32,000 nt of DNA from Pseudodesulfovibrio mercurii (lineage in GTDB: Bacteria > Desulfobacterota > Desulfovibrionia > Desulfovibrionales > Desulfovibrionaceae): NCBI RefSeq assembly GCF_000189295.2, contig NC_016803.1, positions 2,490,001-2,522,000 on the forward strand, given 5' to 3'. Position numbers and translations under genes: made by a program. Shown piece after piece: positions 5,947-28,154 of the stretch. The stretch's first letter is position 1, and each line of letters starts with the position of its first letter. The notes below the pieces were generated by a model. That model saw only the letters and a program-made list of their open reading frames with translations. It was not told the origin of the DNA and made no database searches.

Positions 5947-6001
5947 GGGGGAAGGGGAGAGGGAAACCCTTTGAAAAGGGTTTTCCCTCTCCCCTTCCCC
6001 C
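5947..6001. repeat. Long near-perfect inverted repeat (26/27-bp arms, GGGGGAAGGGGAGAGGGAAACCCTTT / AAAGGGTTTTCCCTCTCCCCTTCCCCC) just after the phnE stop
   Basis: Arms differ by a single A. The core AACCCTTTGAAAAGGGTT recurs at 6219-6236 and, as a variant, at 23070-23088. It may also act as the phnE terminator hairpin, though there is no T-run. Confidence 0.8.
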
Positions 6002-6014
6002 GGACCCCCATCCC

Positions 6015-6241
6015 CTCTCCCTTCCTAAACTTTTTGGCGCCGCTGCGCGGGGTCGTAGCGCGTAAAATCACCAATTTCCCCACCGTCCCGACACGTCGCC
6101 CTGACACACTTCCTTTTCCCTCGCCCCTCCCGGCGGCGCGAACCCTCCGGGACACCGCCTGTCCCGCGCCCGCACGCCCCTGCCGAAGGCACACAAAAAG
6201 TTTGGGAGAGTCCAGAGAACCCTTTGAAAAGGGTGCTCTGG
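6015..6241. repeat. MITE-like repeat element, copy 1 (TIR-like ends 6015-6050 and 6180-6213), plus a flanking palindrome at 6212-6241
   Basis: Left end CTCTCCCTTCCTAAACTTTTTGGCGCCGCTGCGCGG resembles the reverse complement of the right end (GGACTCTCCCAAACTTTTTGTGTGCCTTCGGCAG). A homologous inverted copy lies at 23064-23247. No coding capacity is apparent. Confidence 0.55.
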
Positions 6242-6436
6242 TCCCCCCGACAAATCCGCAGGACAGCGGATTTGGACCGCGCCTGGAAAGGCGCGACCCC
6301 GCAGGGGTGAGCCCCAGGACGGGGCGAATCAAGGGGCCGCCGGAGGCTTCCCCCCGCTCTGCCTCTCCGTCGCCCCCCATGTGCGCCCTGTTGCAGTTGG
6401 TTGCGACCACCGCCGGGGGCGCGTATAGGTGCTGGT

Positions 6437-7153
6437 ATGAAATTCGTGGGCGTGGACGGATGCAGGGCCGGTTGGTGCGCGGCGTGGGTGGCGGACGGCC
6501 GGTGGGACGTGGGCGTGTATCCGTTGTTCGCGGACCTGTGGAGCGAGCACGAGGATGCCGAGAGCGTGCTGGTGGACATCCCCATCGGGCTGGCGGACGA
6601 CGCGAACCGGCGGGCCGAGGGGCTGCTCCGGGCGAGGCTCGGCCCGAGAAGGAACAGCGTGTTCAATACGCCCGCCAGGGCGGCCCTCCATGCCGGGTCC
6701 AAAGCGGCGGCAAAGGCAAGCAACCGAAAAGCCGCCGGTAAGTCCTTATCCGAACAATCATTGGGCATTATGAACAAGATTGCGGAAGTGGATATATTTC
6801 TGGTCGACCATCCCGAGGCTGTGGAAAAGGTGTTCGAATCGCACCCGGAGCTGTGCTTCGCCATGGCCGGGGGAGCGCCCATGGGGTATGCCAAGCGGGA
6901 CACGCCCGGGGTGGTGGAGCGGTACGACATCCTGCGGCGGTTCGTGCCGGACGTGCGCGGATTGCTGGACCGGGTGCGCGGGACGCATCCGGCATCGAAG
7001 GTGGCCGGGGACGACGTGTTCGACGCGTTGATCCTGGCCGTGAGCGGGCGGCGGGGCGCGGGCGGACGGCTCCGGTCCCTGCCCGATCCCGTGGAGCGGG
7101 ACGCCGCCGGGCTGCCCATGGCCATCTGGTACGCGGAATTCGACAACCAATGA
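6437..7153 (+). CDS. DUF429-family protein (function unknown)
   Basis: ATG 6437. The N-terminus MKFVGVDGCRAGWCAAWV matches the G(I/V)DGC+GGW start typical of DUF429 proteins. Good G/C3 bias. The ORF-track start at 6401 is an upstream extension. Confidence 0.6.
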   Translation: MKFVGVDGCRAGWCAAWVADGRWDVGVYPLFADLWSEHEDAESVLVDIPIGLADDANRRAEGLLRARLGPRRNSVFNTPARAALHAGSKAAAKASNRKAAGKSLSEQSLGIMNKIAEVDIFLVDHPEAVEKVFESHPELCFAMAGGAPMGYAKRDTPGVVERYDILRRFVPDVRGLLDRVRGTHPASKVAGDDVFDALILAVSGRRGAGGRLRSLPDPVERDAAGLPMAIWYAEFDNQ

Positions 7154-9063: not shown

Positions 9064-12000
9064 CTACCTGGCCGCCGCCAGGGCCGCCTCCCGTTGCCGC
9101 TGCCGTTCCGCGCGCCTCTCCTCGCGCCTGCGCTCCTTGCGCTCCCTGCGCCGCGTGACCAGGTCCCAGAGCAGGGGCATGACCAGCAGGGTCATGCCCG
9201 TGGCCACGCACAGGCCGGTGACGAAGGTGGTGGCCATGGTCCCCCAGACAACGGAGTAGTAGGGGATGCCCAGGGCCATGGGCAGCAGCCCCAGGGTGGT
9301 GGTCAGGGTGGTCAGGAGGATGGGCCGCAGCCGCACGCGCACGGCCTCGCGGATGGCGTCCATGCGCTCGTAGCCCTTGGCGTAGAGGCGGTTGATGAAG
9401 TCAAGCAGGACCAGGGAGTCGTTGACCACGACCCCGGCCACGCCCACCGTGGCGATGAAGCTGTTCACCGTGAACAGGGAGCGGGTCAGGAAGGTGCCGA
9501 AGACCACGCCGATGAGGGCGAAGGCCACGGCGGACAGGATGATGGCCGGCTGGACGTAGGATTGGAACTGGCAGGCCAGGATGGTGTACATGACCAGGAT
9601 GGCGATGCAGAAGGCGTACATGAGCGAGGTGAAGGACCGGCCCGTGGACTCGTACTCCCCGGCGAAGCTCAGGGTCGCGCCGGGATAGTCGTCCTGGATG
9701 GTCCGGTAGTAGGCCCGCACGTCGTGGACCACGCTCGGGGCGCTGACCGGCGCGCCCTCGCGGATGTTGGCGGTCAGGGTCACGGCCCGCTGGCCCTGGA
9801 AACGGTTGAGCTGGCCGGGCTCGCGGTAGGCGCGGACCTCGGCCAGGTCGCCCACGCGCACCGGGCCGGTGTCGTTCTGCAGGATGGGGATGTCCAGCGC
9901 GTCCTCGGGCCTGGACAGGAAACGCTTGTCGATCTTCATGCGCAGGTCCACGTCCTCGTCCGCGGCGCGGAACTTGCCCACGAACCGGCCGTCCAGGATG
10001 CCGCCCGCCAGGGCGACCACCTGAGCCGGGGTCAGCCCGTACTCGGCCACCAGGCTCGGCACCGGGATGAACCGGAAGACGCGGTTGTCCGTGCCCGTGT
10101 CCGTGGCCAGGTCCTCGAGATGCGGGGCCAGCCGCTTGTTGGCCCGTATCCAGTCGAAGACGTTGTTCTTGAGGGCCATGACCGCGTCCTGGTCCGGGCC
10201 GAGGACGCGGATGTTCACGTCCTTGCCCGCGGGCGGGCCGCCCTGTTCGGGCCAGACGCGCAGCCGCCAGCCGTTCACGGCCAGGGGTTCGAGCCGCTTG
10301 CGGATGGTGTCCAGCAACAGTTGCGGGTCGTTGTCCGGGTTGTCCACGAAGGCCTGCTCGCCCTGGCGGGGCAGCTCCACGATGACGATGGCCCGGTTGG
10401 GGCCGAAGATGTTCTCGTAGTCCTCGTTGATGTCCATGCCGCCCAGGCCGGAGCAGGACTTGGTGGTGCCGGGCCCCAGGGCCATGAGGGTCCTGGAGAC
10501 CTCCTTGGCCTTGGCCGACGCGGTGTACACGTCCGTGCCCACCGGGCCTTCCATGGACACGTAATACAGGGTGTATTCGTCCGGGAAGAACTTGATGCGC
10601 AGCAGGGGCATGACCCCGGAGACCGAGACCCCGAGCATGACGATGGCCATGACGAAGGCCGTGACGACCAGGGTCAGGGTCTTCCAGCGGTGGCGCAGGG
10701 TGATCCGCAGGAGCGCGTCGGTCACCCGCTTCAGCCAGCCCATGAAGCGAGGGTCGCGGGCCTGGAGGTGCTCGGCGGCCTGCTCCTCGAGCCTGGTCGC
10801 GCCGGGCCAGTCCAGGAAGTGCAGGGGCAGGATGGCCAGGCACTCCACCAGGGAGGCGATGATGGCGAAGGACACGGCCTTGGGCACCAGGGCGAAGAAC
10901 TCGCCGGTGGACCCGGTCATGATCAGCATGGGCATGAACGCGGCCACGGTGGTGGAGGTGGCCGCCACCACGGGCAGGAAGACCTCGCTGGCCCCGTCCA
11001 CCACGGCCTCGCGCAGCCCCTTGCCGTCCTGCACGTGGCGGTAGATGTTCTCGACCACCACGATGGCGTCGTCCACGATGATGCCGCTCACCAGGACGAA
11101 GGAGAACAGGGTGATTTCATTGATGGAATTGCCGGTGATCCACATGATTATCATGGTCACCAGGAAGGAGAAGGGCACGCCAACGGTGGTCAGCATGGCG
11201 TTGCGGAAGCCCATGAACAGCCAGATGCAGGCGCAGACCAGGACGATGCCGACCAGCAGGTTGGAGCCGAGCGTGTTGATGTTCTCGCGGATGGGGATGC
11301 GCTGGTCCTGGGTGACCACCGCCTGGACGCCCTCCTTGTCGAGCACGGGCCGGTATTCGGCGACCACCTTTTCCACGGCCGCCCCGATGTCCAGGGAGTT
11401 GCCCTCGGGCGACTTGAGGACCTTGACCGAGACCGCGTCACGGCCGTCCACGGACGAGACCACGAACGGGTCGCGGTAGTCCATGCCCGCCGAGCTGAGC
11501 ACGTCGCCCACGGTCACGAAGGAGCCATCCAGGTCGCGCCGGACGATGGTCCGGGCCACCTCGTCGCGGGACCGGAACTTCTGGTCGGCCACGATGACGT
11601 ATTCCCCGGAATCACTGATGAAATCGCCCGCCGGGACCGACACGTTGGCCCCCTCCAGGGCCTGGCCCACCTGGTCGAAGGTGACCCCCAGGCGCATCAT
11701 CTTCTCCGGGTCCAGGTTGACGTGGAACTCGCGGGTGTACTCGCCGCTGATCTGGACCTCCTTGACCCCGGGGATGGATTGCAGGGGCAGTTTGAGCTCG
11801 TCGGCCATGAGGCTGAGCGCCCGGTTGGAGCGCTCCCCGAGGAGGTTCACGGACAGGACCGGCAACCACTCGGACACGCGGATGACCGTGAAGTCCGGCG
11901 GGTCCATGTCGCTGGGAAGGTCATTCTGAATGGACAACACCTTGAAGCGCAATTCGTCATACAGTTTGTCGTAATCGGTGTCGTCCAGGAACTTGACCAT

Positions 12001-12294
12001 GATGGAGCAGCGCTGGCGGAAGGAGCGGGAGCGGATGAACTCCACGTTCTCCAGGTCCTCGAGCGCGTCCTCGATCTTGCGCGTGACCAGGGTCTCCACC
12101 TCGTCCGGGCTGGCGCCGGGCAGGAAGGCGGAGATGACCACCTTGCCCATGCGCACGTCCGGATAGCGCTCCACCGGCAGGTCGAAGACGCAGAACACGC
12201 CGACCACCATGAGCAGGATGAACATGAGGTTGACGAAGACCTTCTGGCCCAGGGTGAACCGGATCAGGGCCTGGGTGGGCGAATCCTTGTGCAT
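9064..12294 (-). CDS. RND efflux transporter inner-membrane permease (AcrB/HAE-type)
   Basis: 1076 aa. N-terminal TM then a large periplasmic loop. Conserved TM4/TM10-type motifs GIIVDDAIVVVENI and VVVNDSLVLLDFIN. Arg/Glu-rich C-terminal tail. Confidence 0.9.
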   Translation of the reverse strand: MHKDSPTQALIRFTLGQKVFVNLMFILLMVVGVFCVFDLPVERYPDVRMGKVVISAFLPGASPDEVETLVTRKIEDALEDLENVEFIRSRSFRQRCSIMVKFLDDTDYDKLYDELRFKVLSIQNDLPSDMDPPDFTVIRVSEWLPVLSVNLLGERSNRALSLMADELKLPLQSIPGVKEVQISGEYTREFHVNLDPEKMMRLGVTFDQVGQALEGANVSVPAGDFISDSGEYVIVADQKFRSRDEVARTIVRRDLDGSFVTVGDVLSSAGMDYRDPFVVSSVDGRDAVSVKVLKSPEGNSLDIGAAVEKVVAEYRPVLDKEGVQAVVTQDQRIPIRENINTLGSNLLVGIVLVCACIWLFMGFRNAMLTTVGVPFSFLVTMIIMWITGNSINEITLFSFVLVSGIIVDDAIVVVENIYRHVQDGKGLREAVVDGASEVFLPVVAATSTTVAAFMPMLIMTGSTGEFFALVPKAVSFAIIASLVECLAILPLHFLDWPGATRLEEQAAEHLQARDPRFMGWLKRVTDALLRITLRHRWKTLTLVVTAFVMAIVMLGVSVSGVMPLLRIKFFPDEYTLYYVSMEGPVGTDVYTASAKAKEVSRTLMALGPGTTKSCSGLGGMDINEDYENIFGPNRAIVIVELPRQGEQAFVDNPDNDPQLLLDTIRKRLEPLAVNGWRLRVWPEQGGPPAGKDVNIRVLGPDQDAVMALKNNVFDWIRANKRLAPHLEDLATDTGTDNRVFRFIPVPSLVAEYGLTPAQVVALAGGILDGRFVGKFRAADEDVDLRMKIDKRFLSRPEDALDIPILQNDTGPVRVGDLAEVRAYREPGQLNRFQGQRAVTLTANIREGAPVSAPSVVHDVRAYYRTIQDDYPGATLSFAGEYESTGRSFTSLMYAFCIAILVMYTILACQFQSYVQPAIILSAVAFALIGVVFGTFLTRSLFTVNSFIATVGVAGVVVNDSLVLLDFINRLYAKGYERMDAIREAVRVRLRPILLTTLTTTLGLLPMALGIPYYSVVWGTMATTFVTGLCVATGMTLLVMPLLWDLVTRRRERKERRREERRAERQRQREAALAAAR

Positions 12295-12312
12295 GGCTCG
12301 TCTCGCCGGGGG

Positions 12313-13431
12313 TTAGGGGTGGAGCAGGTACACGGCGCCGGGGCGCACGTCCGGGCCGGACACGCGGCGCAGACCGTCGCCAGCCGAGCCGAGCAGGACC
12401 ACGCGGACCCGCTGGTGATCCGGGGTCATCAGGAAATACTCCTCGTAGGCCTTGACCAGGGCGGACTCGGGCACGACCACGGCCCCGCCGGGATCGGGCA
12501 GGGCCAGGTCCAGCTCGGTGCGGATGCCGCCCCGGAACTCGAAGTCCCCCCTGGCGATCTCCAGGTCCACGTTGATCTTGCGCGTGACCGGGTCGAAGCC
12601 GGGCGAGACGCGGGCCACGCGGGCCTCCACCGTGCCGCCCAGGTCGGTCAACCGCAGGGCGACCTCGTCCCCCAGCGCCTTGAGGGCGCGGTACTCCTCG
12701 CTGGTCAGGGCAAAGGGCACGAGCAGGACGTCGTAACGCCCGAGCTGGGCCACGGTCTCGCCCTTGGTCACCCATTCGCCGGGCTCGATGTCGCGGGCCA
12801 CGACCTTCCAGCCCGGAGGGCCGACCAGGGAGAAGCGCTCAAGACGCTCCAGAAGGACCTGTTCCTCCACCTGCTTGGCGCGCAGCTGCTGGAGGGCGGC
12901 CTGGTGGGCGCGGACGTTGGCGTCCAGGGTGGACTGGGGCGCGGTGTCGGTCTTGACCAGGGCCTGGTAGCGGTCCAGCTCCTTCTTGTTGTAGGCCAGG
13001 TCGCTCTTGAGCCGCGCCTGGTCCGCGCGGTTGGCGGCCAGGTCCAGCTCGATGAAGGTGGTGTCCAGCTCGGCGAACAGCCCGTCCGGACCGAGCGCGT
13101 CGCCCACGTCGGCCAGGACCTTGACCACCCGGCCGGACTCCTCGGCCACCAGGCTCATGGCGTTGCGCGCACGGGTGAAGCCGGTCAGGGAGGACTTGCG
13201 GTCCGCGGACCGGACCGTGAAGGTCTCGGTGGAGCCGGTCTCGGCGGGGGCGGGGGTGGGGACCTCGGCCTGGGCCGCCTCGGCCAGGGCGCTGCCCGGC
13301 ACCACCGTCTTGCCGGAATCCGTCTCGCCGAGCCGGTCGTTGCCGCATCCGGCCGTCAGCAGCAGGGCCGACAGCAGGGCCGTCAACAGGACCGGCAACG
13401 AGGCCGGAAGGAAATGGCCTATCCGTTTCAT
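12313..13431 (-). CDS. RND periplasmic adaptor (membrane fusion protein, HlyD/AcrA family) lipoprotein
   Basis: ATG at 13431 (MKRIGHFLPASLPVLL...LLTAGC lipobox). Coiled-coil segment (LKSDLAYNKKELDRYQALV ... LQQLRAKQVEEQVLLERLE). Its stop lies 18 nt upstream of the RND start. The ORF-track start at 13707 is an extension into the TetR gene. Confidence 0.85.
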   Translation of the reverse strand: MKRIGHFLPASLPVLLTALLSALLLTAGCGNDRLGETDSGKTVVPGSALAEAAQAEVPTPAPAETGSTETFTVRSADRKSSLTGFTRARNAMSLVAEESGRVVKVLADVGDALGPDGLFAELDTTFIELDLAANRADQARLKSDLAYNKKELDRYQALVKTDTAPQSTLDANVRAHQAALQQLRAKQVEEQVLLERLERFSLVGPPGWKVVARDIEPGEWVTKGETVAQLGRYDVLLVPFALTSEEYRALKALGDEVALRLTDLGGTVEARVARVSPGFDPVTRKINVDLEIARGDFEFRGGIRTELDLALPDPGGAVVVPESALVKAYEEYFLMTPDHQRVRVVLLGSAGDGLRRVSGPDVRPGAVYLLHP

Positions 13432-13442
13432 GGGTACCGCCT

Positions 13443-14078
13443 TTATGCGTTCTTCGGAAATTCGTTGTCGCCGGGGACCGGCCGCAGGCCGAACTCGATG
13501 ATCCGGCCCACCAGGTCGTCCAGGTCCTCGCCGTCGTTCAGGGCCGCCACCTGCCCGGTGGCGATGAGGTGGACCAGGCCGTGGAGCTGCCCCCACAGGG
13601 CGAAGACCAGGGCGTTGACGTCCAGGCCGCCGAACCGGCCCGTGGCCACGCACTCGGCCACCGTGTCCCGGAAAAGCCGGAACGAGCGGATGGAGCTGGC
13701 GGCCCATTCACCGTCCAGGTCCACCTGGTCGCAGGTGGTGCTGAACATGAGATGGTAGTTGTCCGGCTCCTCCAGGGCGAAGCGGATGTATTCCCGCGCC
13801 CCGGCCCGCAACCGCTCCACCGGGTCCGGGAACCGCTCCCGGCCCCTGTCCTGGCGCTCCACGAACCCGGCGAAGCCCTCCTCGCGCAGGGCGGAGAGGA
13901 TCTCCCGCTTGTTCCGGAAATAGCGGTAGAGCGCGGCCGGACTGTATTCGATGCGCGAGGCGATGCGCCGGAGCGACACGTTGTCGAACCCCTCCCGGAC
14001 GAAGAGCTGGCGCGCCGCGTCCAGGATGCGCCGCCGCATCCGTTCCCTGTCCCGTTCCCGTCGTTTTCTGGTGTCCAT
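13443..14078 (-). CDS. TetR/AcrR-family transcriptional regulator (first gene of the efflux operon)
   Basis: ATG 14078 preceded by GAGG. The ORF-track start at 14093 is a TTG. HTH FDNVSLRRIASRIEYSPAALYRYFRNKREIL. Its stop lies 11 nt before the MFP start. Confidence 0.85.
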   Translation of the reverse strand: MDTRKRRERDRERMRRRILDAARQLFVREGFDNVSLRRIASRIEYSPAALYRYFRNKREILSALREEGFAGFVERQDRGRERFPDPVERLRAGAREYIRFALEEPDNYHLMFSTTCDQVDLDGEWAASSIRSFRLFRDTVAECVATGRFGGLDVNALVFALWGQLHGLVHLIATGQVAALNDGEDLDDLVGRIIEFGLRPVPGDNEFPKNA

Positions 14079-14098
14079 GCCCGCCTCTAGCAAATGCC

Positions 14099-14113
14099 GT
14101 TAACTTTGTAAAC
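14099..14113. promoter_or_regulatory. Imperfect palindrome GTTAACTTTGTAAAC upstream of the TetR-MFP-RND operon; candidate operator
   Basis: Half-sites GTTAAC / GTAAAC (reverse complement GTTTAC) lie 21 nt upstream of the TetR ATG. Assignment is by position only. Confidence 0.3.
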
Positions 14114-14176
14114 GCTGTTCACACAATCGTACGCCCGTCGTGGCCCAGGCGTCGCCCTAACCGGTATGAACCGGTG

Positions 14177-14698
14177 TTATCCGCGCTCCCGGCCCAGGAA
14201 CGAGCGCATGGCCGCGTGGACCACCAGGTGGTGGAAGGGGCGGATGAGGTTGAAATAGACCGCCCCGGCCCGGTTGCGGTAGCGGACCACGGTGACCACG
14301 CGGAACCGGCTCCGCCCGTCCGGCCCCTCCGAAAGCGATTCGCCGCAGACCGCCACGGCCGCGTCCAGGTGGGACTCCTTGCCCTCGCCGATCCAGTAGG
14401 TCTCGCCGTCCGTCCGGACCACGGTGAAGATCCCGGCCCGATCGCCCGGGGCGCGGGGCAGGGTCTCGGCGGTCAGGACCGCCCGGTCCGGCACCGCGCG
14501 TTCACCCTGGCCCAGGGTCCGGAGCAGGGCTACGCGCACGCGCCACAGCCAGGCCATCCACGCCGGGCGGTAGGAGAGCAGACCGGCGGCCAGACCGAGG
14601 ACCGTGCCCCGGCCGTCCATGGTGTGCACGTCCACGTGGTCCGCGCCGTCCAGGAGCCCGGCCATGCCCGACAGCCGCTCCAGATCACGCCGGTCCAT
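14177..14698 (-). CDS. DUF2867-like protein
   Basis: ATG 14698. C-terminal ...HLDAAVAV ... RNRAGAVYFNLIRPFHHLVVHAAMRSF resembles the conserved Y(L/F)xxIxPFHxLIV end of DUF2867. Overlaps the upstream TetR gene by 14 nt. Confidence 0.55.
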   Translation of the reverse strand: MDRRDLERLSGMAGLLDGADHVDVHTMDGRGTVLGLAAGLLSYRPAWMAWLWRVRVALLRTLGQGERAVPDRAVLTAETLPRAPGDRAGIFTVVRTDGETYWIGEGKESHLDAAVAVCGESLSEGPDGRSRFRVVTVVRYRNRAGAVYFNLIRPFHHLVVHAAMRSFLGRERG

Positions 14699-15326
14699 GT
14701 CCGCCTCCCGTCACGTCGGCCAGCACCCCGGCCAGGACCACGTCCAGCAGGCCCATGACCGAGGCCACCTGGCCCTCCACGTCGAACCGTTCCCGGTTGA
14801 GCCCGTCGATGAGCCCGCCGGCGTACAGGGACCAGCACACCATGGCCAGTTGAAGACCCGACACGTCCGACCGGACCTCGCCGGTCGCCTTGCGCGCCTC
14901 GATCAGACCGGCCACCTCGCCGACGATCTCCCGCAACTGCCCGTCGAAACGGGCCTTCCACTCGCCGGTGGCGAACAGGGCCTCCTTGACCACCGAACGC
15001 AGGAACAGGGTGTGCTCGCCGTAGTAGCCGTACATTGTGCGGAGCATGTGCCGGAATTGTTCGCGCAGGGGCACGTCCCGCGGCGCGCTCGCGATGGCCC
15101 GGCGCGAGACCTCGCCGATGTCGTCGAAAAACGAGGAGAAGAGCAGGGAGGTCTTGTCCCGGAAATGCAGGGCGATGGTGCCCACGCCCACCCCGGCCGC
15201 CTGGGCCAAATCGCGCATGGTCGTGGCCTCGAACCCCTTTTCCGCGATCAGGGTCCGGGCCGCCGCCTGAATCCGACGGCGGGTCTCGGCCTTGCGCTCC
15301 TCGCGCAGGGATGCGTCCTTGGCCAT
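14685..15326 (-). CDS. TetR/AcrR-family transcriptional regulator
   Basis: AGGAGG RBS. HTH FEATTMRDLAQAAGVGVGTIALHFRDKTSLL. Confidence 0.85.
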   Translation of the reverse strand: MAKDASLREERKAETRRRIQAAARTLIAEKGFEATTMRDLAQAAGVGVGTIALHFRDKTSLLFSSFFDDIGEVSRRAIASAPRDVPLREQFRHMLRTMYGYYGEHTLFLRSVVKEALFATGEWKARFDGQLREIVGEVAGLIEARKATGEVRSDVSGLQLAMVCWSLYAGGLIDGLNRERFDVEGQVASVMGLLDVVLAGVLADVTGGGHGPA

Positions 15327-15527: not shown

Positions 15528-16748
15528 TCAGGACCTGAGGACGTCCAGAATCTCGATATTGGCGGCCTGCCAGGCGGGGTAGGCCCCGGCGAGCACGCCC
15601 AGAAGGCAGGACCCGGCCAGGGTCACGGCCAGGCTGACCGGGTCGATGATGATCGGCAGCTTGGCCACGGTGCAGCCCACCAGGACCAGGGCCACGGTCA
15701 CGGCCACGCCCAGGCCGCCGCCCACCGCGGCCATGAGCCCGGACTCGAACAGGAACTGGCGGACGATGTCCCGCCTGCGGCCGCCCACGGCCCGGCGCAC
15801 GCCGATCTCCACCCGCCTGGAGCGAACCACCAGGATCATGATGGACAGGATGCCCAGGCCGCCCACGGCAAAGGAGATGGTCGAGGTGATCCCGCCCAGC
15901 GTGGTCATCAGGTCCAGGGCCTGGCGTTGCAGCTTGATGGCGTCGGCCGCGGACATGGAGCTGAAGTCGTCCTTTTCGCCGGGGTCGATGCGGTGCCGTT
16001 CGCGCATGATCGCGTTCACCGAGTCGTTGACCTGGGTCAGGCCCGCGTCCTTGGCCAGACGCATGTATACACCGGAAACCCAGCGCTGGTTGCTGGCCCG
16101 GCGCATGTAGGTGGTCAGCGGCATGAGCAGGATCTCGTCCTGGTCCGTGCCGGACACGTCGCGGCCCTTCTCCTCCATGACCCCGAGGACCCGGAAGCTG
16201 GCCCGGAACATGTAGATGTCACGGCCCACGGCCTGCTCGGGGCGGCCGAACAGCCGCTGGGCGATCTTGCGCCCGAGCACGCAGACCTTGGCCCGGTCGT
16301 CCACGTCGCTCCAGGTGAAGAACCGGCCCACGTCCGGGCGGAAGCTGCGGATTTCCTGGTAGTTGGGCCAGCAGGCCAGAATCTGGGCGTTGACCGCGTT
16401 GCCGTTGCCGCGCACGGCCATGGTCGCGGTGACGAAGGGCGTGCCGTCCAGGACCGAGGGCACGGAGTCGATCAGGGCCTGGGCGTCGGCCAGGACGAAG
16501 TTGCGCGAGTTGCCGTTGATGCGCACGCCCCCGCCCCGGGTGAAGCGGACCGATCCGGCCAGGACCGCATACAGGTTCGGGCCGAGCTTTTCGGTCTCCA
16601 TCTCGGCCTGTCGGACCATGATCTTGGACACGTGCTGCACCCCGGTGAAGGCCAGGGCGCCCAGGAAAACCCCGAGCATGGCCAGCACGGCGCGGAGCTT
16701 GTGGGCCGACAGGGAGGACACGGCGATGGTCAGGTTCAGGGGCAGCAT
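15528..16748 (-). CDS. FtsX/MacB-type ABC transporter permease (no adjacent ATPase)
   Basis: GGAGG RBS 5 nt upstream of ATG 16748. One N-terminal TM, a ~240-aa periplasmic domain and three C-terminal TMs. Conserved RRVEIGVRRAVGGRRRDIVRQFLFES helix typical of MacB/LolCE-type permeases. Confidence 0.8.
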   Translation of the reverse strand: MLPLNLTIAVSSLSAHKLRAVLAMLGVFLGALAFTGVQHVSKIMVRQAEMETEKLGPNLYAVLAGSVRFTRGGGVRINGNSRNFVLADAQALIDSVPSVLDGTPFVTATMAVRGNGNAVNAQILACWPNYQEIRSFRPDVGRFFTWSDVDDRAKVCVLGRKIAQRLFGRPEQAVGRDIYMFRASFRVLGVMEEKGRDVSGTDQDEILLMPLTTYMRRASNQRWVSGVYMRLAKDAGLTQVNDSVNAIMRERHRIDPGEKDDFSSMSAADAIKLQRQALDLMTTLGGITSTISFAVGGLGILSIMILVVRSRRVEIGVRRAVGGRRRDIVRQFLFESGLMAAVGGGLGVAVTVALVLVGCTVAKLPIIIDPVSLAVTLAGSCLLGVLAGAYPAWQAANIEILDVLRS

Positions 16749-16758
16749 GGGACCTCCG

Positions 16759-17430
16759 CTACTCGTACCGGGCCCGGTTCCAGGCCGTGTTGCCGTTGAA
16801 GACGTGCTGCCACAGCCGCTCGAAGGCGTGGCCGGTATTGCCCGCGTCCAGCGGGTCGTCCTCGATCAGGCGCAGGCAGAATTCGTAGAAGGATTTCGGC
16901 CGGGTGCGGATGCGCTCGCCGGTCACGCAGAAGTTGCCCGTGGGCGCGCGGCAGATGATCTCGTCCGGCATGGCGACGCCGAAGAGGCGTTCGAACAGCT
17001 CGCCCACCGGGATGTCCCGGCCCCAACCGGCCCAGCGGCCCTCGTTCTCGGGCTTGCGCAGGTCGTGCGGACGGCCCAGGCGGTCGCTCTTCAGCTTGAA
17101 CCAGGCCAGCCCCCGGAAGGGCACGCCCCTATCCGCAACGTCCTCCAAGGTCTTCCGCAAGGTCTCCACCGTGGTCCGGCCGCGATCATCCAGGTGATCG
17201 AAGGGGTCGCCCTGGAGAAAGACGTTCAGGGGGGCCAGGGCGTCGTACTCGTTGACGATGTGCGTGAAATAGGTGTGGGCCTCGCGCCCGATGTTCGGCA
17301 GTTTGCGGGCATCCGGGCCGAGATCGCCGCCCTTGTCGTAGACCGTGTGGGGGCACCCCAGCCGGCTTGCCCAGGACACGTCCTCGCGGTACCTGGCGAT
17401 GATCACCCGGATGTCGTCACGCACGTTCAC
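16759..17430 (-). CDS. DUF3431-like protein (function unknown)
   Basis: GTG 17430 overlaps the larC stop (GTGA). IIARYREDVSW ... LPNIGREAHTYFTHIVNEYDAL ... FLQGDPFDH resembles the NKGREA..YLT.I...YD core of DUF3431. The ORF-track 471-aa version is an out-of-frame shadow over larC. Confidence 0.55.
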   Translation of the reverse strand: MNVRDDIRVIIARYREDVSWASRLGCPHTVYDKGGDLGPDARKLPNIGREAHTYFTHIVNEYDALAPLNVFLQGDPFDHLDDRGRTTVETLRKTLEDVADRGVPFRGLAWFKLKSDRLGRPHDLRKPENEGRWAGWGRDIPVGELFERLFGVAMPDEIICRAPTGNFCVTGERIRTRPKSFYEFCLRLIEDDPLDAGNTGHAFERLWQHVFNGNTAWNRARYE

Positions 17431-18194
17431 GCTCCACGCGGGGGTTCGGGTTCCGCAACCTTCTCCAAGACCATGGCCCGGACATAGGTGGGCTGCTCGT
17501 CCGAGGACCGCCCGCCCGAGCCGTAGCCCACCCCCAAAAGACGTCCCAGGGGCAGGGGACCGAAGTCGTCCGCAACAATCCGCAGGATGGCCAGGCCCGT
17601 GGGGGTGGCCCGCTCCATGGCGCAGTCGGAGCCGAAGGTGGTCAGCCCCCTGGCCAGTTCCGCGCAAGCCGGTGCCGGGACAGGCATTTTGCCGTGGGCG
17701 CACTGCACGAACCCGGACCCCAGGTCCACCGGGCTGCAGACCACGCGTTCGGCCTCCAGGGCGTCCAGCAGGAGCATGGTTCCGCAAATATCCGCAAGGG
17801 TGTCCACAGCGCCGATCTCGTGGAAGTGGACCTGCTCCAGGTCCACGCCGTGGACCTTGGCCTCGGCCTGGCCCAGAAGGCGCAGGGCCCGGACAGAGCG
17901 TTCCCCGGCCCGACCGGACAGGCCGCTTCCCTCGATAATCCGGCAGAGGTCGGTGTAGTGGCGCAGGGGCTGCTCCCGGGTCTGGAGCACGTCCACGTGC
18001 GTGGTCCGGATGCCCGCGATGCGCTTTTCCGTCCATTTGAGCCCGAAGCCGTCCAGGCCGAGCCGGGCCAGCTCCCGCTCCAGGAAGGCGAACCCCAGGC
18101 CGGGGCCGCGCCACTCCTCCAGGGCGTGGCTCAGGGCGGCGAGGAGCATGTCCCCGCTCACGCCCGTGGAACAATCGAGATATACCGTGTGCAT
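17427..18194 (-). CDS. larC: LarC-like nickel insertion protein, N-terminal (LarC1/DUF111) domain only
   Basis: MHTVYLDCSTGVSGDMLLAAL start and HFHEIGAVDTLADICG motif of DUF111/LarC. The ORF ends after 255 aa at the usual inter-domain boundary. Confidence 0.8.
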   Translation of the reverse strand: MHTVYLDCSTGVSGDMLLAALSHALEEWRGPGLGFAFLERELARLGLDGFGLKWTEKRIAGIRTTHVDVLQTREQPLRHYTDLCRIIEGSGLSGRAGERSVRALRLLGQAEAKVHGVDLEQVHFHEIGAVDTLADICGTMLLLDALEAERVVCSPVDLGSGFVQCAHGKMPVPAPACAELARGLTTFGSDCAMERATPTGLAILRIVADDFGPLPLGRLLGVGYGSGGRSSDEQPTYVRAMVLEKVAEPEPPRGA

Positions 18195-18200
18195 GGGTTC

Positions 18201-18953
18201 CTATCCGTCCCGCCCGCCGACGGCCAGCATGTTGATCTTGTGGGCCAGGTAGCCCGCGCCGAAGCCGTTGTCGATGTTCACGACCCCGATGCCCGGCGCG
18301 CAGGAATTCATCATGGTCAGCAGGGCGGCCAGCCCCTGAAAACTGGCCCCGTAGCCCACGCTGGTGGGCACGGCCAGGATGGGCGGTAGGGCCAGGCCGC
18401 CGATGACCGAGGGCAGCGCCCCCTCCATGCCCGCCACGGCGATGATCACCGAGGCGTCGTTGAGATCGTCCATGACCGAAAAGAGGCGGTGGATGCCCGC
18501 CACCCCGCAGTCGAAATGCCGATCCACGCGGCTACCCAGGAACTCGGCCGTGCCCGCGGCCTCCTCGGCCACGTCCAGGTCCGAGGTGCCCGCCGAGACG
18601 ACCACCACCTTGCCCGCCGGGTCCGCCACCGGCTCCCCGATGGACAGCAGCCCGGACACCGGGTCGAAGCGGGCGTCCGCAACGGCCCGCACGGCCTCGA
18701 AATGGGCGTGATCGGCCCTGGTCCCCAGGACCCGTCCGTTGTGGCGGTTGAGGTGATCAAAGATCGAGGCCACCTGATCGGGCGTCTTGCCAGCGCAGTA
18801 GACCACCTCGGGCCCGCCGGTGCGCAGCTCGCGCAGCTGGTCGATCTTGGCGCAGCCGGTTTCGATGAAGGACTGCCGGAGCAATTCCTTCTTCAGCTTG
18901 TCCCGCGAAATCTGTCCGGCTTCGAAATCGTCGAGCAGACGGTCCAGGCTCAT
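18201..18953 (-). CDS. larB: LarB, pyridinium-3,5-biscarboxylic acid mononucleotide synthase (PurE-like)
   Basis: VVVVSAGTSDLDVAEEAAGTAEFLG and AVAGMEGALPSVIGGL PurE/AIR-carboxylase-like motifs. ATG 18953 overlaps the larE stop (ATGA) and has GGGAG upstream. An alternative in-frame ATG lies at 18977. Confidence 0.85.
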   Translation of the reverse strand: MSLDRLLDDFEAGQISRDKLKKELLRQSFIETGCAKIDQLRELRTGGPEVVYCAGKTPDQVASIFDHLNRHNGRVLGTRADHAHFEAVRAVADARFDPVSGLLSIGEPVADPAGKVVVVSAGTSDLDVAEEAAGTAEFLGSRVDRHFDCGVAGIHRLFSVMDDLNDASVIIAVAGMEGALPSVIGGLALPPILAVPTSVGYGASFQGLAALLTMMNSCAPGIGVVNIDNGFGAGYLAHKINMLAVGGRDG

Positions 18954-19711
18954 CCGGCCCACTCCCTGAAGGTGCATGATTCCAGCCCGATCCGATTCGC
19001 CAGCGCCACGATTTTATCACGGTTTTCCTGTATGATTTCTGCGTACTGCGGAAGGTACTCCACGGTTGCCATCAGATTATCAGGCCGGACGCGGACCGTG
19101 TGCACGCCGATGGTGTGCAGGTAGGATTCCAGGGCGTTCACCCGGCCGAGGTCGTCGGCATTCAGGGGCACGCCCGTGGGGATGCGCGTGGCCAGGCAGC
19201 TCTCGGACGGGGCCTCCCAGTTGGACAGCCCCGCCTCGCGCGCCAGCCCCCGGATCTCGGCCTTGCCCAACCCCGCCGCCAGCAGGACCGAATAGACGTG
19301 GAACTCCTGCAGGGCCCGCAGGCCCGGCCGGTTGGGGTCGTCGTCAGCGTTGGTCCCGTCCAGGAGCAGGCAACCCGCCCCGAAGGCGTCCCGCATGGTG
19401 CGGAGAATCAGGCACTTGCAGTGATAGCAGCGGTCGTCCAGGTTGCGCCGCACCTCGGGCACGACCAGGGCCGAAATCTGGATGACCCGGTGCTCGATGC
19501 CGATGTGGGCGGCCACGCGTTCGGCGCGCTTCAGGTCCCGGTCCGGGGTCAGTTCGCTGACCACGGTGCAGGCCATGGCGCGCGGGCCGAGGGCGAGGTG
19601 CGCCGCGGCGGCCACCAGGCTGCTGTCCACCCCGCCGGACAGGGCCGTGACCGCGCAGCCGACGTCGCCCGCGCGCGCGGCGATGAGGGAGGCAAGATGA
19701 TCGAGGCTCAT
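18950..19711 (-). CDS. larE: LarE, ATP-dependent sulfur transferase (PP-loop ATP pyrophosphatase)
   Basis: PP-loop SGGVDSS. LDGTNADD ... RPGLRAL. SESCLATRIP corresponds to the catalytic Cys loop of LarE. There is an additional CYHCKC motif. Confidence 0.85.
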   Translation of the reverse strand: MSLDHLASLIAARAGDVGCAVTALSGGVDSSLVAAAAHLALGPRAMACTVVSELTPDRDLKRAERVAAHIGIEHRVIQISALVVPEVRRNLDDRCYHCKCLILRTMRDAFGAGCLLLDGTNADDDPNRPGLRALQEFHVYSVLLAAGLGKAEIRGLAREAGLSNWEAPSESCLATRIPTGVPLNADDLGRVNALESYLHTIGVHTVRVRPDNLMATVEYLPQYAEIIQENRDKIVALANRIGLESCTFREWAG

Positions 19712-19742: not shown

Positions 19743-21140
19743 TCAACCCCTTTCGGGCTTTTCGCGGCCTATGAGATCGATGCGCCGCCAGGGGCCCTTG
19801 CGGAAACGGGTCATGAAGGTGGAGGCCAGGATGACCACGTAGAGGAGCAGGAACATCCACGGCCCGTGGATGCTGGTGATGCCCAGTCCGTTGAGCACCA
19901 GCAGGGGGATGACCAGGCAGACGATGGAGCCGGTGCCCATGACGAACATGATGAACCGGGTGTCGCCCGCGCCCTTGAGCCCGCCCATGTAGACGATGGC
20001 CAGGGCGTCGAGCAGGGTGAACACGGCGCAGTAGCGCATGAGCACCCCGCCCATGGCCAGGACCGCGTTGAAATCGATGCCGGTCACGTCGCGGGGCCGG
20101 AACAGGTTGAGCAGGAATTCCGGCATGACCCAGAAGACAACGGCCATGACGCCCATGTAGGCCAGGGCGATGTGCAGGACCGAGTGGGTGCAGAAGGCCG
20201 CACGGTCCGGGTTGCCGTCGCCCATGGCCTGGCCAACCATGATGCTGGCCGCCACGTGCAGGCCGATGGTCGGCAGGAAGGCCAGGTTGTAGATGGAGAA
20301 GACCGCGCTTGTGGAGGCCAGTTCCACGGGACCGAAGCGGCCGATGATGAAGACGAAGAACGAAACCGCGAACATGTCCAGGAAGAACTGGACCCCGCCG
20401 GGCAGGCCAAAACGCAGGAACCGGGCGAACAGGGCGTGGTCGAACCGCCAGGCGGACCGGACCCGGAACAGGGCTTCGTTCTTGCGGGTGAAGATCAGCC
20501 GGATGTAGACGATCAGCGGCACGATGAAGCCGATGACCGTGGCCAGGCCCGCACCGGCGATGCCCATCTCCGGGAAGGGCCCGATACCGTTGATCAGACA
20601 GTAATCCAGCGGAATGTTGATGAAGATAGAGCCCAGACTGATGAGCATGACCGGCTTGGTCAGGCCGCGCCCGGCAAAGAAGTTGGACAGGCACATGCCG
20701 AGCAGGCAGGGCAGGCTGCCCACCGTGAGGATCTGGAAATAGACGATCTCGAGACGCCGGATGGACTCGGGGTGGCCGACCAGCCCGAACAGCGGCTCCG
20801 CGAAAAAGGCCAGGGCCGCGAGCAGCAGCCCGGACGGCACGCAGAACCAGAGGCCCACCCACAGGGCGCGGCCCACGTCCGCCGGACGGCACGCGCCCGT
20901 GTACTGGGCGATGAACACGTTGACGTACTCGGACACGCCCATGAAAAAGGACAGGAACAGGAAGGCCATGACGTTGGCCGGCAGGGAGGCGCCCAGGGCC
21001 TCCAGGGAGTAGTTGCCCAGAAATATTCGGTCCGTGAAGGTCATGACCGTGTTGGAGACCATGCTGACGACCAGGGGCAGCCCGATATTGAGGGCCTCCC
21101 GATACCCGCCTTGCGCACGCCAACGTTCCACCAGATACAT
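19743..21140 (-). CDS. MATE-family efflux transporter
   Basis: ATG 21140 preceded by GAGGA (5-nt A spacer). ~465 aa, 12 predicted TMs. N-terminal ...EALNIGLPLVVSMVSNTVMTFTDRIFLG typical of MATE/NorM proteins. The ORF-track start at 21197 is an extension. Confidence 0.85.
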   Translation of the reverse strand: MYLVERWRAQGGYREALNIGLPLVVSMVSNTVMTFTDRIFLGNYSLEALGASLPANVMAFLFLSFFMGVSEYVNVFIAQYTGACRPADVGRALWVGLWFCVPSGLLLAALAFFAEPLFGLVGHPESIRRLEIVYFQILTVGSLPCLLGMCLSNFFAGRGLTKPVMLISLGSIFINIPLDYCLINGIGPFPEMGIAGAGLATVIGFIVPLIVYIRLIFTRKNEALFRVRSAWRFDHALFARFLRFGLPGGVQFFLDMFAVSFFVFIIGRFGPVELASTSAVFSIYNLAFLPTIGLHVAASIMVGQAMGDGNPDRAAFCTHSVLHIALAYMGVMAVVFWVMPEFLLNLFRPRDVTGIDFNAVLAMGGVLMRYCAVFTLLDALAIVYMGGLKGAGDTRFIMFVMGTGSIVCLVIPLLVLNGLGITSIHGPWMFLLLYVVILASTFMTRFRKGPWRRIDLIGREKPERG

Positions 21141-21203
21141 TTTTTTCCTCGTTTGTTGCGGACCGCCCGCGACAGGGCATCGGTCCGGCATTGGCAACCT
21201 ATA

Positions 21204-25789: not shown

Positions 25790-26707
25790 CTACGCGAACT
25801 CGACCCCGAACCTTTCCGCAACGGACCGCAAGTCATCTTCAGCCGCGTAACTAACCGTCAATTTACCTTTTTCCGGGGAGCCGGAGATTTTGACCGTAAG
25901 GCCCAACAAATCGGAAAGTTCGCCCTGGAGGGTCTCCAGGCGGGGGTCCAACGGCCGAGGTTCGGACTTGGCCGAGCGGGAGGAGGGCGCGGCCCCGATC
26001 TCGTCCGCGCCGGGCAGCCGTCCGTGCTGCTTGAAGAAAGAGGCCTGGGCCTCGGCCTGGCGCACAGTCAGGCCGTTCTCGGCGATGCGGCGGTGCAGTT
26101 CGGCCTGGGGCTCGGGAGCGCTCACGGCCATGATCGCCCGACCGTGCCCGGCGGACAGGACGTTCTGCTGGATGGCGGTCTGCACGCTTTCCGGCAGGTT
26201 GAGCAGACGCAGGGAGTTGGCCACGGCGGAACGGCTCTTGCCCACCTGACGGGCCAGTTCCTCCTGGCTCAGCCCGAACTCCTGCTGCAACCGCTGGTAG
26301 CCGAGCGCCTCTTCCACGGCGTTCAGGTCCTCGCGCTGCAAATTCTCGATCAGAGCGATGGCCAGGCTCTCCTGGTCGGTCATCTCCCGAACCAGGGAGG
26401 GGATGTCCGTGAGCCCGGCCTTCCTGGAGGCGCGCAGCCGCCGCTCACCGGCGACCAGCTCGTATTTGCCCTTGCCAAGGGGGCGGACCAGGATGGGCTG
26501 GAGCACGCCGCGCGTCTCGATGGAGGCGGCCAGGTCGTTCAGGGCCTCCTCGGAGAATTCGCGCCGGGGCTGGTGCGGGTTGGGGGTGATGGCCCCCACC
26601 GGAATCAGGCGCACCTCGGCGGCATCGGCCGTGACCTTTTCATCCTCGCGCACGCCGCCCAGCAATGCATCCAATCCCCGTCCAAGTCCCCTGTTCGTCG
26701 CTGTCAT
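25790..26707 (-). CDS. parB: Chromosome partitioning protein ParB/Spo0J
   Basis: AGGAG RBS. GLGRGLDALL N-terminus. LVAGERRLRASR box. HTH SQEELARQVGKSRSAVANSLRLLNLP. Confidence 0.9.
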   Translation of the reverse strand: MTATNRGLGRGLDALLGGVREDEKVTADAAEVRLIPVGAITPNPHQPRREFSEEALNDLAASIETRGVLQPILVRPLGKGKYELVAGERRLRASRKAGLTDIPSLVREMTDQESLAIALIENLQREDLNAVEEALGYQRLQQEFGLSQEELARQVGKSRSAVANSLRLLNLPESVQTAIQQNVLSAGHGRAIMAVSAPEPQAELHRRIAENGLTVRQAEAQASFFKQHGRLPGADEIGAAPSSRSAKSEPRPLDPRLETLQGELSDLLGLTVKISGSPEKGKLTVSYAAEDDLRSVAERFGVEFA

Positions 26708-26796
26708 ATATGACTCCTGTCTCGCTGGTAATTCAATCCTTGCCCAAAAATGCTTGAGTGCCTATAACGCCCCGAAGAAAACCATACGGAGCGAAC

Positions 26797-27231
26797 ATGT
26801 CCGATCAGATCAACGAACTCTTCGACAAGGACGGCAACCTCATCGGCGCCCTGCTGACCGCCGAGGCCTGGACCACGGTCCGCGCCCTGGTCATGGATGC
26901 CCTCGGGGTGAACGAGAACGACGCGCCCGACGCGCCCGAAGTAAAGCCCGAGCCGCTGGCCGACTGGGAAACCCTCACGCAATATTGGGATTTCCCGTAT
27001 GCCGTGGACATGGACGTGGCCTGCGAAAACTGCGGCAACCGCACCGAGGACTGGTCCTCTGATGAGCCGCGTAAGTTCCGCCTGACCAGCGCGAACCTCG
27101 CCGGGCTGGTGGCCTTCCAGTGCATGGACTGCCGGGCCAAGGTGGTCAAGAAGCACTTCAAGGACGAGATCGTCACCGAATGCACGCCCTACCGCGAGGA
27201 GAAGATCACCTCCAAGGAAGGGCGGTACTGA
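26797..27231 (+). CDS. Hypothetical zinc-ribbon protein, 144 aa, encoded opposite to and between parB and parA
   Basis: GGAG 5 nt upstream of ATG 26797. Pronounced G/C third-position bias. CENC-x29-CMDC motif and an acidic N-terminal half. The overlapping minus-strand ORFs translate to S/R/G/H-rich low-complexity sequence. Confidence 0.6.
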   Translation: MSDQINELFDKDGNLIGALLTAEAWTTVRALVMDALGVNENDAPDAPEVKPEPLADWETLTQYWDFPYAVDMDVACENCGNRTEDWSSDEPRKFRLTSANLAGLVAFQCMDCRAKVVKKHFKDEIVTECTPYREEKITSKEGRY

Positions 27232-27295
27232 TCACCCATCGCTCACGCCCGCGCCGCTCGATCATCACGATGCGGCGCTCCCGTCAAAGAACCCG

Positions 27296-28093
27296 TCAGG
27301 CCCCGGCCGTGGAGCTGCGCTCCACTTCCTGGGCCAGCGCCAGGTACGCCTCCGCACCCCGCGACTTGATATCGTAATTGATCACCGGTTTACCGAAGCT
27401 CGGCGCCTCGGACAGACGCACGTTCCTCGGAATGATCGTCTCGAACAGGTGCTGGGGGAACGCCTTGCGTACCTCGTTTTTCACCTGCCACGACAGCCGG
27501 TTTCTCGAATCGTACATGGTCAGGACCACGCCGAGGATATCGAGCCCCGGATTGAGCCGCTTGCGGACCAGCTCGTAGGTCATGAGCAACTGCGCGATGC
27601 CCTCCAATGCGTAATACTCGCACTGCAACGGCACGAGCAGCTCGTCGGCCGCGCACAGGGCGTTGACCGTCAGCAGGCCGAGGGAGGGGGGGCAGTCGAT
27701 GAGGATGAAATCATACTCGGGGTCCGCCTGGTCGATGAGTTCGCGCAGGTAGAACTCACGTCCGAACTTGTCCACCAGCTCGATCTCCGCGCCGACCAAG
27801 TCCTGCGTTCCGGGCAGGATGTCCAGGTAGGGTATGCCGGTCGGGAGGATGGCCTTGCCGATGTTCTTCGGCTCGAAGAGCACGGTGTAGATGTTTTCGC
27901 GCTTATCGCCGGGGTAGAAGCCGAGCCCGCTGGAGGCGTTTCCCTGGGGGTCGCAGTCAACCAGCAGGACGCGCTTTTCCATCACGGCCAGGGAGGCCGC
28001 CAGGTTGATGGCGGTGGTGGTCTTGCCCACGCCGCCCTTTTGATTCGCAATCACGATTCTTCTCGCCACATGACCCTCGCTTTCGAGCTGCAT
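27296..28093 (-). CDS. parA: Chromosome partitioning ATPase ParA/Soj
   Basis: Deviant Walker A NQKGGVGKTTT. LLVDCDPQGNAS. 265 aa from ATG 28093. The ORF-track start at 28135 is a TTG inside the parS palindrome. Confidence 0.9.
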   Translation of the reverse strand: MQLESEGHVARRIVIANQKGGVGKTTTAINLAASLAVMEKRVLLVDCDPQGNASSGLGFYPGDKRENIYTVLFEPKNIGKAILPTGIPYLDILPGTQDLVGAEIELVDKFGREFYLRELIDQADPEYDFILIDCPPSLGLLTVNALCAADELLVPLQCEYYALEGIAQLLMTYELVRKRLNPGLDILGVVLTMYDSRNRLSWQVKNEVRKAFPQHLFETIIPRNVRLSEAPSFGKPVINYDIKSRGAEAYLALAQEVERSSTAGA

Positions 28094-28118
28094 TCGGTGC
28101 GTTCGAGACTCCGTCGTT

Positions 28119-28134
28119 TGTTTCACGTGAAACA
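28119..28134. promoter_or_regulatory. parS: parS site 1 (TGTTTCACGTGAAACA)
   Basis: Perfect 16-bp palindrome identical to the canonical chromosomal parS consensus, 26 nt upstream of the parA ATG. Confidence 0.85.
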
Positions 28135-28154
28135 ATTAACCCCTGAACAGGCGG

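Follow-up and report, generated by a model that had tools for sequence, protein, structure and literature searches.

Does a LarC protein need the domain that activates its substrate in order to insert nickel? The question is raised by a short larC gene of the sulfate reducer Pseudodesulfovibrio mercurii, which lies in a stretch of 32,000 nucleotides of the genome (contig NC_016803.1, positions 2,490,001 to 2,522,000; hereafter the window) and is followed directly by a gene of the DUF3431 family. According to the canonical model, the C-terminal LarC2 domain transfers cytidine monophosphate (CMP) to the precursor P2TMN, giving P2TCD, and the N-terminal LarC1 domain inserts nickel, with release of CMP (2026 LarC structural work). 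A preliminary description of the locus had noted that larC stops at the boundary between these domains and had offered three explanations: that a LarC2 partner is encoded elsewhere, that the DUF3431-like protein functionally replaces LarC2, or that larC is decaying. The background on which it drew, namely that LarC2 holds the cytidine triphosphate (CTP) pocket and that larC1 and larC2 of Lactobacillus plantarum are joined by a programmed frameshift, agrees with the LarC literature. We favour, at roughly even odds (probability about 0.5), another explanation, in which the gene encodes a genuine LarC1-only cyclometallase that works without LarC2 and stands beside an unrelated glycosyltransferase-like gene.

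The short LarC is homologous to canonical LarC throughout the LarC1 domain and ends where that domain ends. Its 255 residues align with the Pfam Ni_insertion profile (PF01969) only within positions 1-235 of its 375 (E 2.5e-72) and with the 414-residue chain of Moorella thermoacetica LarC, solved by cryo-EM (LarC_Mt; PDB 12bi), only at chain residues 21-249 (E 8e-51), which bears out the domain boundary first described. In the alignment with PDB 12bi, the linker of LarC_Mt (Mt residues 236-248) corresponds to residues of about 244-256 of the window protein, so that the short open reading frame (ORF) stops where the counterpart of the linker does. The protein scores 188 bits against the NCBIfam model TIGR00299.2, named 'nickel_LarC1' (cut-off 90), and its gene shares the larE-larB-larC order with those of canonical LarCs. 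Twelve LarC1 residues were shown or proposed to be essential in the 2026 LarC_Mt study; eleven of them (D15, R71, E104, H108, H116, H118, E119, D124, D128, H160 and E187 in Mt numbering) are conserved without exception in the 35 clade members, and the twelfth, H72, is variable in full-length LarCs as well. Both the cluster of histidines and the acidic pocket remain but for this one variable histidine, whereas the entire LarC2 domain, with its CTP pocket and hexameric core, is missing. A tblastn search of the window with two LarC2 domains revealed no LarC2-like sequence in any frame (best E 6), in agreement with the earlier reading. In split larC1/larC2 systems (the programmed frameshift of L. 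plantarum and the locus L098, considered below), the LarC1 frame ends at the same domain boundary, but a LarC2 frame comes next, whereas in the window the next gene is DUF3431, which has no relation to LarC2 in sequence or fold. The identical 255-aa protein is also encoded in an independent Logan assembly, a finding that argues against a sequencing frameshift. Judged from its sequence and its gene context, the window protein is most aptly called a LarC1-only form of LarC. The window has a GC content of 66% and contains many spurious long ORFs on both strands; among them, a 471-aa open frame listed across larC1 (16759-18174, minus strand) proved to be the DUF3431 frame extended upstream through GC-rich sequence and was rejected as a gene.

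The short form of LarC is shared by a large group of related bacteria. The nearest relatives of the window proteins are those of D. caledoniensis and P. karagichevae (86-91% protein identity), and the best 120 homologues of the short LarC, which extend down to 55% identity and carry the names Pseudodesulfovibrio, Salidesulfovibrio and Desulfovibrio, are all 234-323 aa long. A core of larE, larB, larC1 and DUF3431 is present in about 35 related Desulfovibrionaceae loci, and we observed this order in seven reference genomes, about 30 metagenome loci, D. aminophilus and the loci L095 and L097. LarC1 measures 243-315 aa in the related loci, and LarC2 is attached to it in none. Nor did we find LarC2 in the 10-kb flanks of the seven genome loci, in 80 metagenome loci (E<=1e-4) or, save for the split-gene locus L098, in the flanks of loci L092-L105. 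The ratio of nonsynonymous to synonymous substitution rates (dN/dS) is 0.10-0.21 for larC1 and 0.12-0.33 for DUF3431. As the truncation extends through the clade, with intact catalytic residues and purifying selection on the gene, we reject the proposal that larC is decaying. The truncation is not specific to the strain either, as no orthologous locus carries an intact full-length larC; the closest full-length LarC that we found, protein P0245 of locus L101, is only 49% identical to the short LarC. A protein-database query with the LarC2 half of P0245 was uninformative on a stand-alone LarC2, its only four matches being pieces of ordinary full-length LarCs. Among the 60 nearest representatives of 50%-identity clusters, about a quarter are without LarC2, some of these being fragments or split genes. 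Short LarC proteins are annotated simply as LarC, and we found no discussion of LarC1-only forms in the accessible literature, outside which the most relevant papers lie, making a prior description possible.

LarC1-only genes also occur without a DUF3431 neighbour. In locus L099, a GT-A-like (glycosyltransferase A-fold) ORF and a gene combining tetratricopeptide repeats (TPR) with a family 2 glycosyltransferase (GT2) domain lie between larC1 and the FtsX-type gene. In L103 (450-1688, protein P0241), LarC1 carries a low-complexity acidic tail of ~167 aa and is followed directly by an FtsX-type permease gene; upstream there is neither larB nor larE, and DUF3431 is absent. The gene of L105 (485-1291, protein P0257) belongs to a further, independent lineage with LarC1 alone, in which the gene order is larB-larC1-larE; its product shares 42% identity with the window LarC and ends in a His-rich C-terminal tail. 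We also observed that in two marine Desulfovibrio metagenome-assembled genomes a thiC gene on the opposite strand lies between larB and larC1 (L006, 7644-8948; L007, 7640-8944; minus strand in the loci); this insertion splits the lar cluster, and larC1 and DUF3431 stay together.

The gene that follows larC1 in the window belongs to DUF3431, as had been proposed from the core of its translation. The 223-aa protein matches PF11913 nearly end to end (71.1 bits against a gathering cut-off of 25, E 1.5e-19, profile positions 3-207 of 219), and no other Pfam family was returned even at E<=10. Searching the PDB by sequence gave only chance matches to amicyanin (E>0.2) and no LarC. An AlphaFold2 model (predicted local distance difference test score, pLDDT, 94.4; predicted template modelling score, pTM, 0.92) shows alternating beta strands and alpha helices in a Rossmann-like fold, for which a Foldseek comparison with the PDB gives weak matches (E 3e-4 to 1e-2, template modelling score, TM, 0.3-0.4). 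These matches are all of the GT-A or nucleotide-diphospho-sugar-transferase fold and comprise ArnC (E 2.7e-4), GtrB, KdsB, GlmU, ADP-glucose pyrophosphorylase and IspD; no LarC entry is among the top 50. The best matches in BFVD are viral multidomain proteins with a TM of 0.73, one of them a 'Glyco_tranf_GTA_type domain containing protein' (TM 0.73, E 5e-13) and the other a Pithovirus protein (A0A481Z5S5), named 'flavin containing amine oxidoreductase', in which a DUF3431-like domain is fused to a flavin amine-oxidoreductase-type domain. The possibility, raised with the first description, that the 223-aa protein would model as the LarC C-terminal domain is thus not borne out: on the evidence of the model, the protein is not LarC2 and looks like a putative glycosyltransferase-like enzyme.

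The modelled protein shares an alpha/beta/alpha core with the GT-A glycosyltransferases ArnC and GtrB and with the nucleotidyltransferases KdsB, IspD and GlmU, but it differs from ArnC and GtrB in its low TM, in lacking a DxD motif and in being soluble, with no membrane segment, and from KdsB of E. coli in showing no sequence-profile similarity (hhalign probability 0.5%, no signal). At the position of the DxD motif, after the fourth strand, it has Q73-G74-x-P76-F77-x-H79, in which D75 is not conserved. After the first strand comes A-[RK]-Y-x-E, by inspection similar to the P-x-Y-N-E motif of GT2 enzymes, and the sequence shows no NTP-binding loop of the G-x-G-T-R type. None of the residues invariant across the family is missing. 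The invariant polar set consists of E16, W20, Y31, K33, N46, G48, R49, E50, H52, T53, Y54, H57, Q73, P76, H79, H201, E204, R205 and W207, some of which fall in the LPNIGREAHTY core, and it is common to the lar-adjacent proteins, to a sister clade that is not lar-adjacent and to homologues of 29-39% identity. The few positions specific to the lar-adjacent clade include no His, Lys or Cys.

Only one sub-clade of DUF3431, that of the window, was seen beside lar genes, whereas other members of the family stand in different surroundings. The sister clade (51-56% identity) lies between uvrB with a potassium-channel gene and ligA, with no lar genes, and another copy sits between GT1 and GT2 genes. 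Distant homologues adjoin the gene for UDP-galactopyranose mutase, glf (L080, 6001-7661; L084, 3735-5395; L089, 2752-5067), in two unrelated settings, namely a phage contig, where a terminase gene is alongside, and a low-GC contig; others are found among GT2 and GT25 genes, and a copy on a Planctomyces plasmid has glycosyltransferase genes nearby. From these neighbourhoods, DUF3431 may act on UDP-galactofuranose. A search of a phage collection for DUF3431 gave no match. The few papers that mention DUF3431 report the family mainly from fungi, and we found none in the accessible literature that links it to LarC.

The family member found beside larC1 also persists where lar genes have gone. In loci L015, L027 and L096, an intact DUF3431-FtsX pair directly follows the MATE-family gene without larE, larB or larC1; as these DUF3431 proteins are nested inside the lar-adjacent clade, we conclude that the lar genes were lost secondarily and DUF3431 was retained. 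L096 shares a MarR-NadE-MATE...FtsX-DAC synteny with L097, which carries lar genes. The gap between the MATE gene and DUF3431 in the three loci is 320-630 bp (L096, 5371-6000; L015, 410-796; L027, 5681-6000), and in that of L015 there is what may be a faint trace of the LarE C-terminus (41% identity over 41 aa, E 0.48).

The junction of larC1 and DUF3431 reads GGAGCGTGAACGTGCGTGAC, and the GTGA overlap reported for it is present, a GTG codon overlapping the TGA stop of larC1. Overlaps of four nucleotides, GTGA or ATGA, are common in bacterial operons and unremarkable alone. Translation of DUF3431 may instead begin at the second GTG, 2 nt past the larC1 stop and 7 nt past the GGAG, which would give a protein of 221 aa and fits the 'MxDxV' N-terminus of most homologues; the upstream start position is ATG in some relatives, so both starts are plausible, and the coupling of the two genes is tight with either. 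An apparent LarC1-DUF3431 fusion of 476 aa in L014 was rejected as an artefact of ORF extension, there being a TAA stop between the two genes, and no such fusion occurs among the 240 homologues listed.

How, then, might a LarC1-only enzyme work? On the reading that we favour, the whole LarC2 domain would have been lost once, in the ancestor of a large Desulfovibrionaceae clade, and the DUF3431 gene would occupy the LarC2 coding position in the genomic sense only; it would encode an unexceptional representative of a glycosyltransferase-like family with the GT-A fold, would be co-transcribed and translationally coupled with larC1, and most likely has no part in nickel insertion. The description of DUF3431 as standing in place of LarC2 is probably positional only. 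LarC1 alone would suffice, the activation step being bypassed or supplied elsewhere, and we consider most plausible a route in which the substrate of LarC1 is a dinucleotide from the outset. P2TAD, an analogue containing adenosine monophosphate (AMP), is reported to be turned into cofactor by LarC without CTP (in work citing Vucko 2024), and NPAD, an adenine-dinucleotide form of the pincer cofactor, is reported to occur naturally (in work citing Desguin 2025, Int J Biol Macromol 330:147799). These two findings make a LarC2-free route conceivable, and with a precursor that remained a dinucleotide, LarC1 would be enough.

Several observations weigh against a LarC1-only cyclometallase with an unrelated neighbour. 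The LarC2 core and the linker were needed for the activity of LarC_Mt (2026 study), and an enzyme consisting of LarC1 alone therefore requires an added explanation. Compared with three LarBs that are paired with full-length or split LarC, the LarBs of the clade show no clade-specific change hinting at lost dinucleotide hydrolysis. The locus L101, which encodes P0245, has larE-larB-larC and no DUF3431, so that the loss of LarC2 and the gain of DUF3431 roughly coincide. The larE-larB-larC1-DUF3431 core is steadier than either of its flanks, the MATE gene often being absent upstream and the downstream gene encoding FtsX, MprF, TetR or a restriction-modification protein, and the larC1/DUF3431 junction is an overlap in 17 of 27 non-redundant related loci and a spacer of 3-22 nt in the other 10. 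The genomes that bear DUF3431 without adjacent lar genes might also hold lar genes elsewhere.

LarC2 could instead be supplied in trans, by a stand-alone gene elsewhere in the genome that would make this a two-gene split LarC, a possibility that we consider unlikely. In L098, from an unrelated lineage (6001-6861), a larC1 of 245 aa is followed after 22 nt, at the contig end, by a LarC2-like ORF that begins with the LarC2 N-terminus VAIVIETNIDDM...GAMDVWF (E 3e-7); from its sequence, this locus may hold two genuinely separate genes or, alternatively, a programmed frameshift of the kind known from L. plantarum, in which LarC1 and LarC2 are likewise separate reading frames. The LarC2 hexamer, moreover, forms without LarC1 (2026 LarC structure work). 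Both halves are nonetheless adjacent in the known split cases, LarC2 is found neither in the 32-kb window nor in the flanks of some 90 related loci, and deletion or replacement of the linker cuts the activity of LarC_Mt to <10%, an indication that tethering matters. If DUF3431 itself were a recruited nucleotide-binding enzyme that nucleotidylates P2TMN for LarC1, as a non-homologous replacement of LarC2, the conserved four-gene core with its tight and often overlapping junction would find an explanation, as would the contrast between the sister full-length LarC without DUF3431 and the LarC1-only loci, almost all of which have it; the GT-A-like fold is also common to the cytidylyltransferases KdsB and IspD (weak PDB matches, E about 2e-3, TM 0.34). 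This replacement, which the preliminary description had put forward, is unsupported by the wider distribution of the family and appears to us rather improbable: DUF3431 stays intact where the lar genes are gone (L015, L027 and L096), LarC1-only loci exist without it (L099, L103 and L105), no residue signature sets the lar-adjacent copies apart, the comparison with the KdsB profile gives no signal, the N-terminal motif is by inspection nearer to the GT2 'x-Y-x-E' than to the nucleotidyltransferase G-x-G-T-R loop, the wider family context is one of glycan synthesis, and the two proteins are never fused in the set listed.

We regard as doubtful, and a little less probable again, the broader statement that DUF3431 is an unrecognised nucleotidyltransferase, or an accessory protein of another kind, that has come to activate the substrate for a nickel insertase made of LarC1 alone; if true, it would make this a two-component cyclometallase and give DUF3431 its first function. 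A precedent for two components exists in MogA and MoeA (Cnx1G and Cnx1E), separate proteins that nucleotidylate a precursor and then insert the metal, an analogy drawn by the authors of the LarC structure paper themselves, but there is no homology to these proteins, and a second activating protein is hypothetical here. Still less probable, in our view, is that DUF3431 works with the nickel-pincer cofactor as a client enzyme, of the class sought near larB, larC and larE in loci without larA. The window contains no homologue of LarA, of aldo-keto reductases (AKR) or of ornithine cyclodeaminase, and DUF3431 has several invariant histidines and one invariant lysine; the same residues do not vary, however, in homologues encoded by phage, in low-GC glycosyltransferase clusters and at loci without lar genes, and the family is known mainly from fungi in the few papers on it. 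An error of assembly or sequencing, or a pseudogene peculiar to the strain, can be dismissed almost entirely as the origin of the short larC, as nothing beyond its short length speaks for either, and both are refuted by the identical protein from the independent assembly, the same architecture in dozens of loci, purifying selection on larC1 and the absence of a LarC2 remnant in any frame. A LarC1-only cyclometallase next to an unrelated gene is the explanation that we favour.

The larC1 and DUF3431 genes are part of a larger gene cluster on the minus strand (Table 1), transcribed in the order MATE, larE, larB, larC1, DUF3431 and MacB/FtsX-type permease, with gaps of no more than 31 nt. The MATE gene is probably the first gene of the operon and lies upstream of larE in many related loci, though not all. 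LarE carries SGGVDS and a CXXC-C cysteine motif (CYHC...SESC), which marks the [4Fe-4S] type (PMC9283937) and suggests, at the level of sequence, a catalytic [4Fe-4S]-dependent enzyme as in T. maritima, as opposed to the sacrificial single-Cys type of L. plantarum. LarB matches L. plantarum LarB (PDB 7mj0) with E 1e-64 and retains the NSCA and MEGAL motifs. Its true start is probably the ATG at 18953 (Met9), with the first eight codons (18953-18977) untranslated, because in the relatives L002 and L012 a stop stands at the position of codon 8, and the region of homology begins at the second Met (MSLDRLL...). A scan of the operon for promoters and terminators returned nothing above chance.

Table 1. 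Features of the lar operon of P. mercurii, in window coordinates
Feature	Position	Strand	Description
MATE-family efflux transporter gene	19743..21197	-	Pfam MatE, E 5.5e-44; 31-nt gap to larE
larE	18950..19711	-	PP-loop sulfur insertase; NCBIfam TIGR00268 LarE, 208.6 bits (cut-off 150)
larB	18201..18977	-	nicotinic acid adenine dinucleotide (NaAD) carboxylase/hydrolase; NCBIfam NF033503 LarB, 272 bits (cut-off 175)
larC1-only gene	17427..18194	-	255 aa; nickel-binding His cluster and acidic pocket; without the LarC2 CTP-binding domain
larC1/DUF3431 junction	17422..17435	-	GGAG 17435-17432; GTG 17430-17428 over TGA 17429-17427; second GTG 17424-17422
DUF3431-family gene	16759..17430	-	223 or 221 aa; Pfam PF11913
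MacB/FtsX-type permease gene	15528..16748	-	406 aa; Pfam MacB_PCD and FtsX; 10 nt downstream of DUF3431

The permease matches the NCBIfam MacB and LolCE models partially and below cut-off, and no ABC ATPase gene adjoins its own. In most loci, ones without lar genes among them, the permease gene comes after DUF3431; in L099 the gene that precedes it is the TPR-GT2 gene and not DUF3431, which hints at a glycosyltransferase-plus-permease module. Farther downstream of the operon (9064-15326, minus strand) lie two TetR genes, a DUF2867 gene and a resistance-nodulation-division (RND) efflux pair, composed of an AcrB-type protein of 1076 aa and a membrane-fusion protein. About 5-7 kb upstream, parB and parA (25790-28135, minus strand) place the locus probably near the chromosome origin. 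In two related loci, a gene for glutamine-dependent NAD synthetase (NadE) lies just upstream of MATE (L097, 1277-2944, where MATE-larE follows; L096, 2273-3946); NadE consumes NaAD, which is the substrate of LarB too.

Our findings point to a clade that has kept LarB, LarE and an intact LarC1 and has no LarC2 at the locus, and such a clade offers a natural test of the CMPylation model. Nickel insertion in these organisms could proceed without CMPylation, for example from a dinucleotide precursor to an NPAD-type cofactor, with activation in trans, or with the help of another protein. Whichever of these holds, the answer would define the minimal enzyme that forms a nickel-carbon bond and would improve the annotation of short proteins that are now called LarC without comment. 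The link of DUF3431 to genes for UDP-galactopyranose mutase and glycosyltransferases, in turn, provides a testable lead for a family of no known function.

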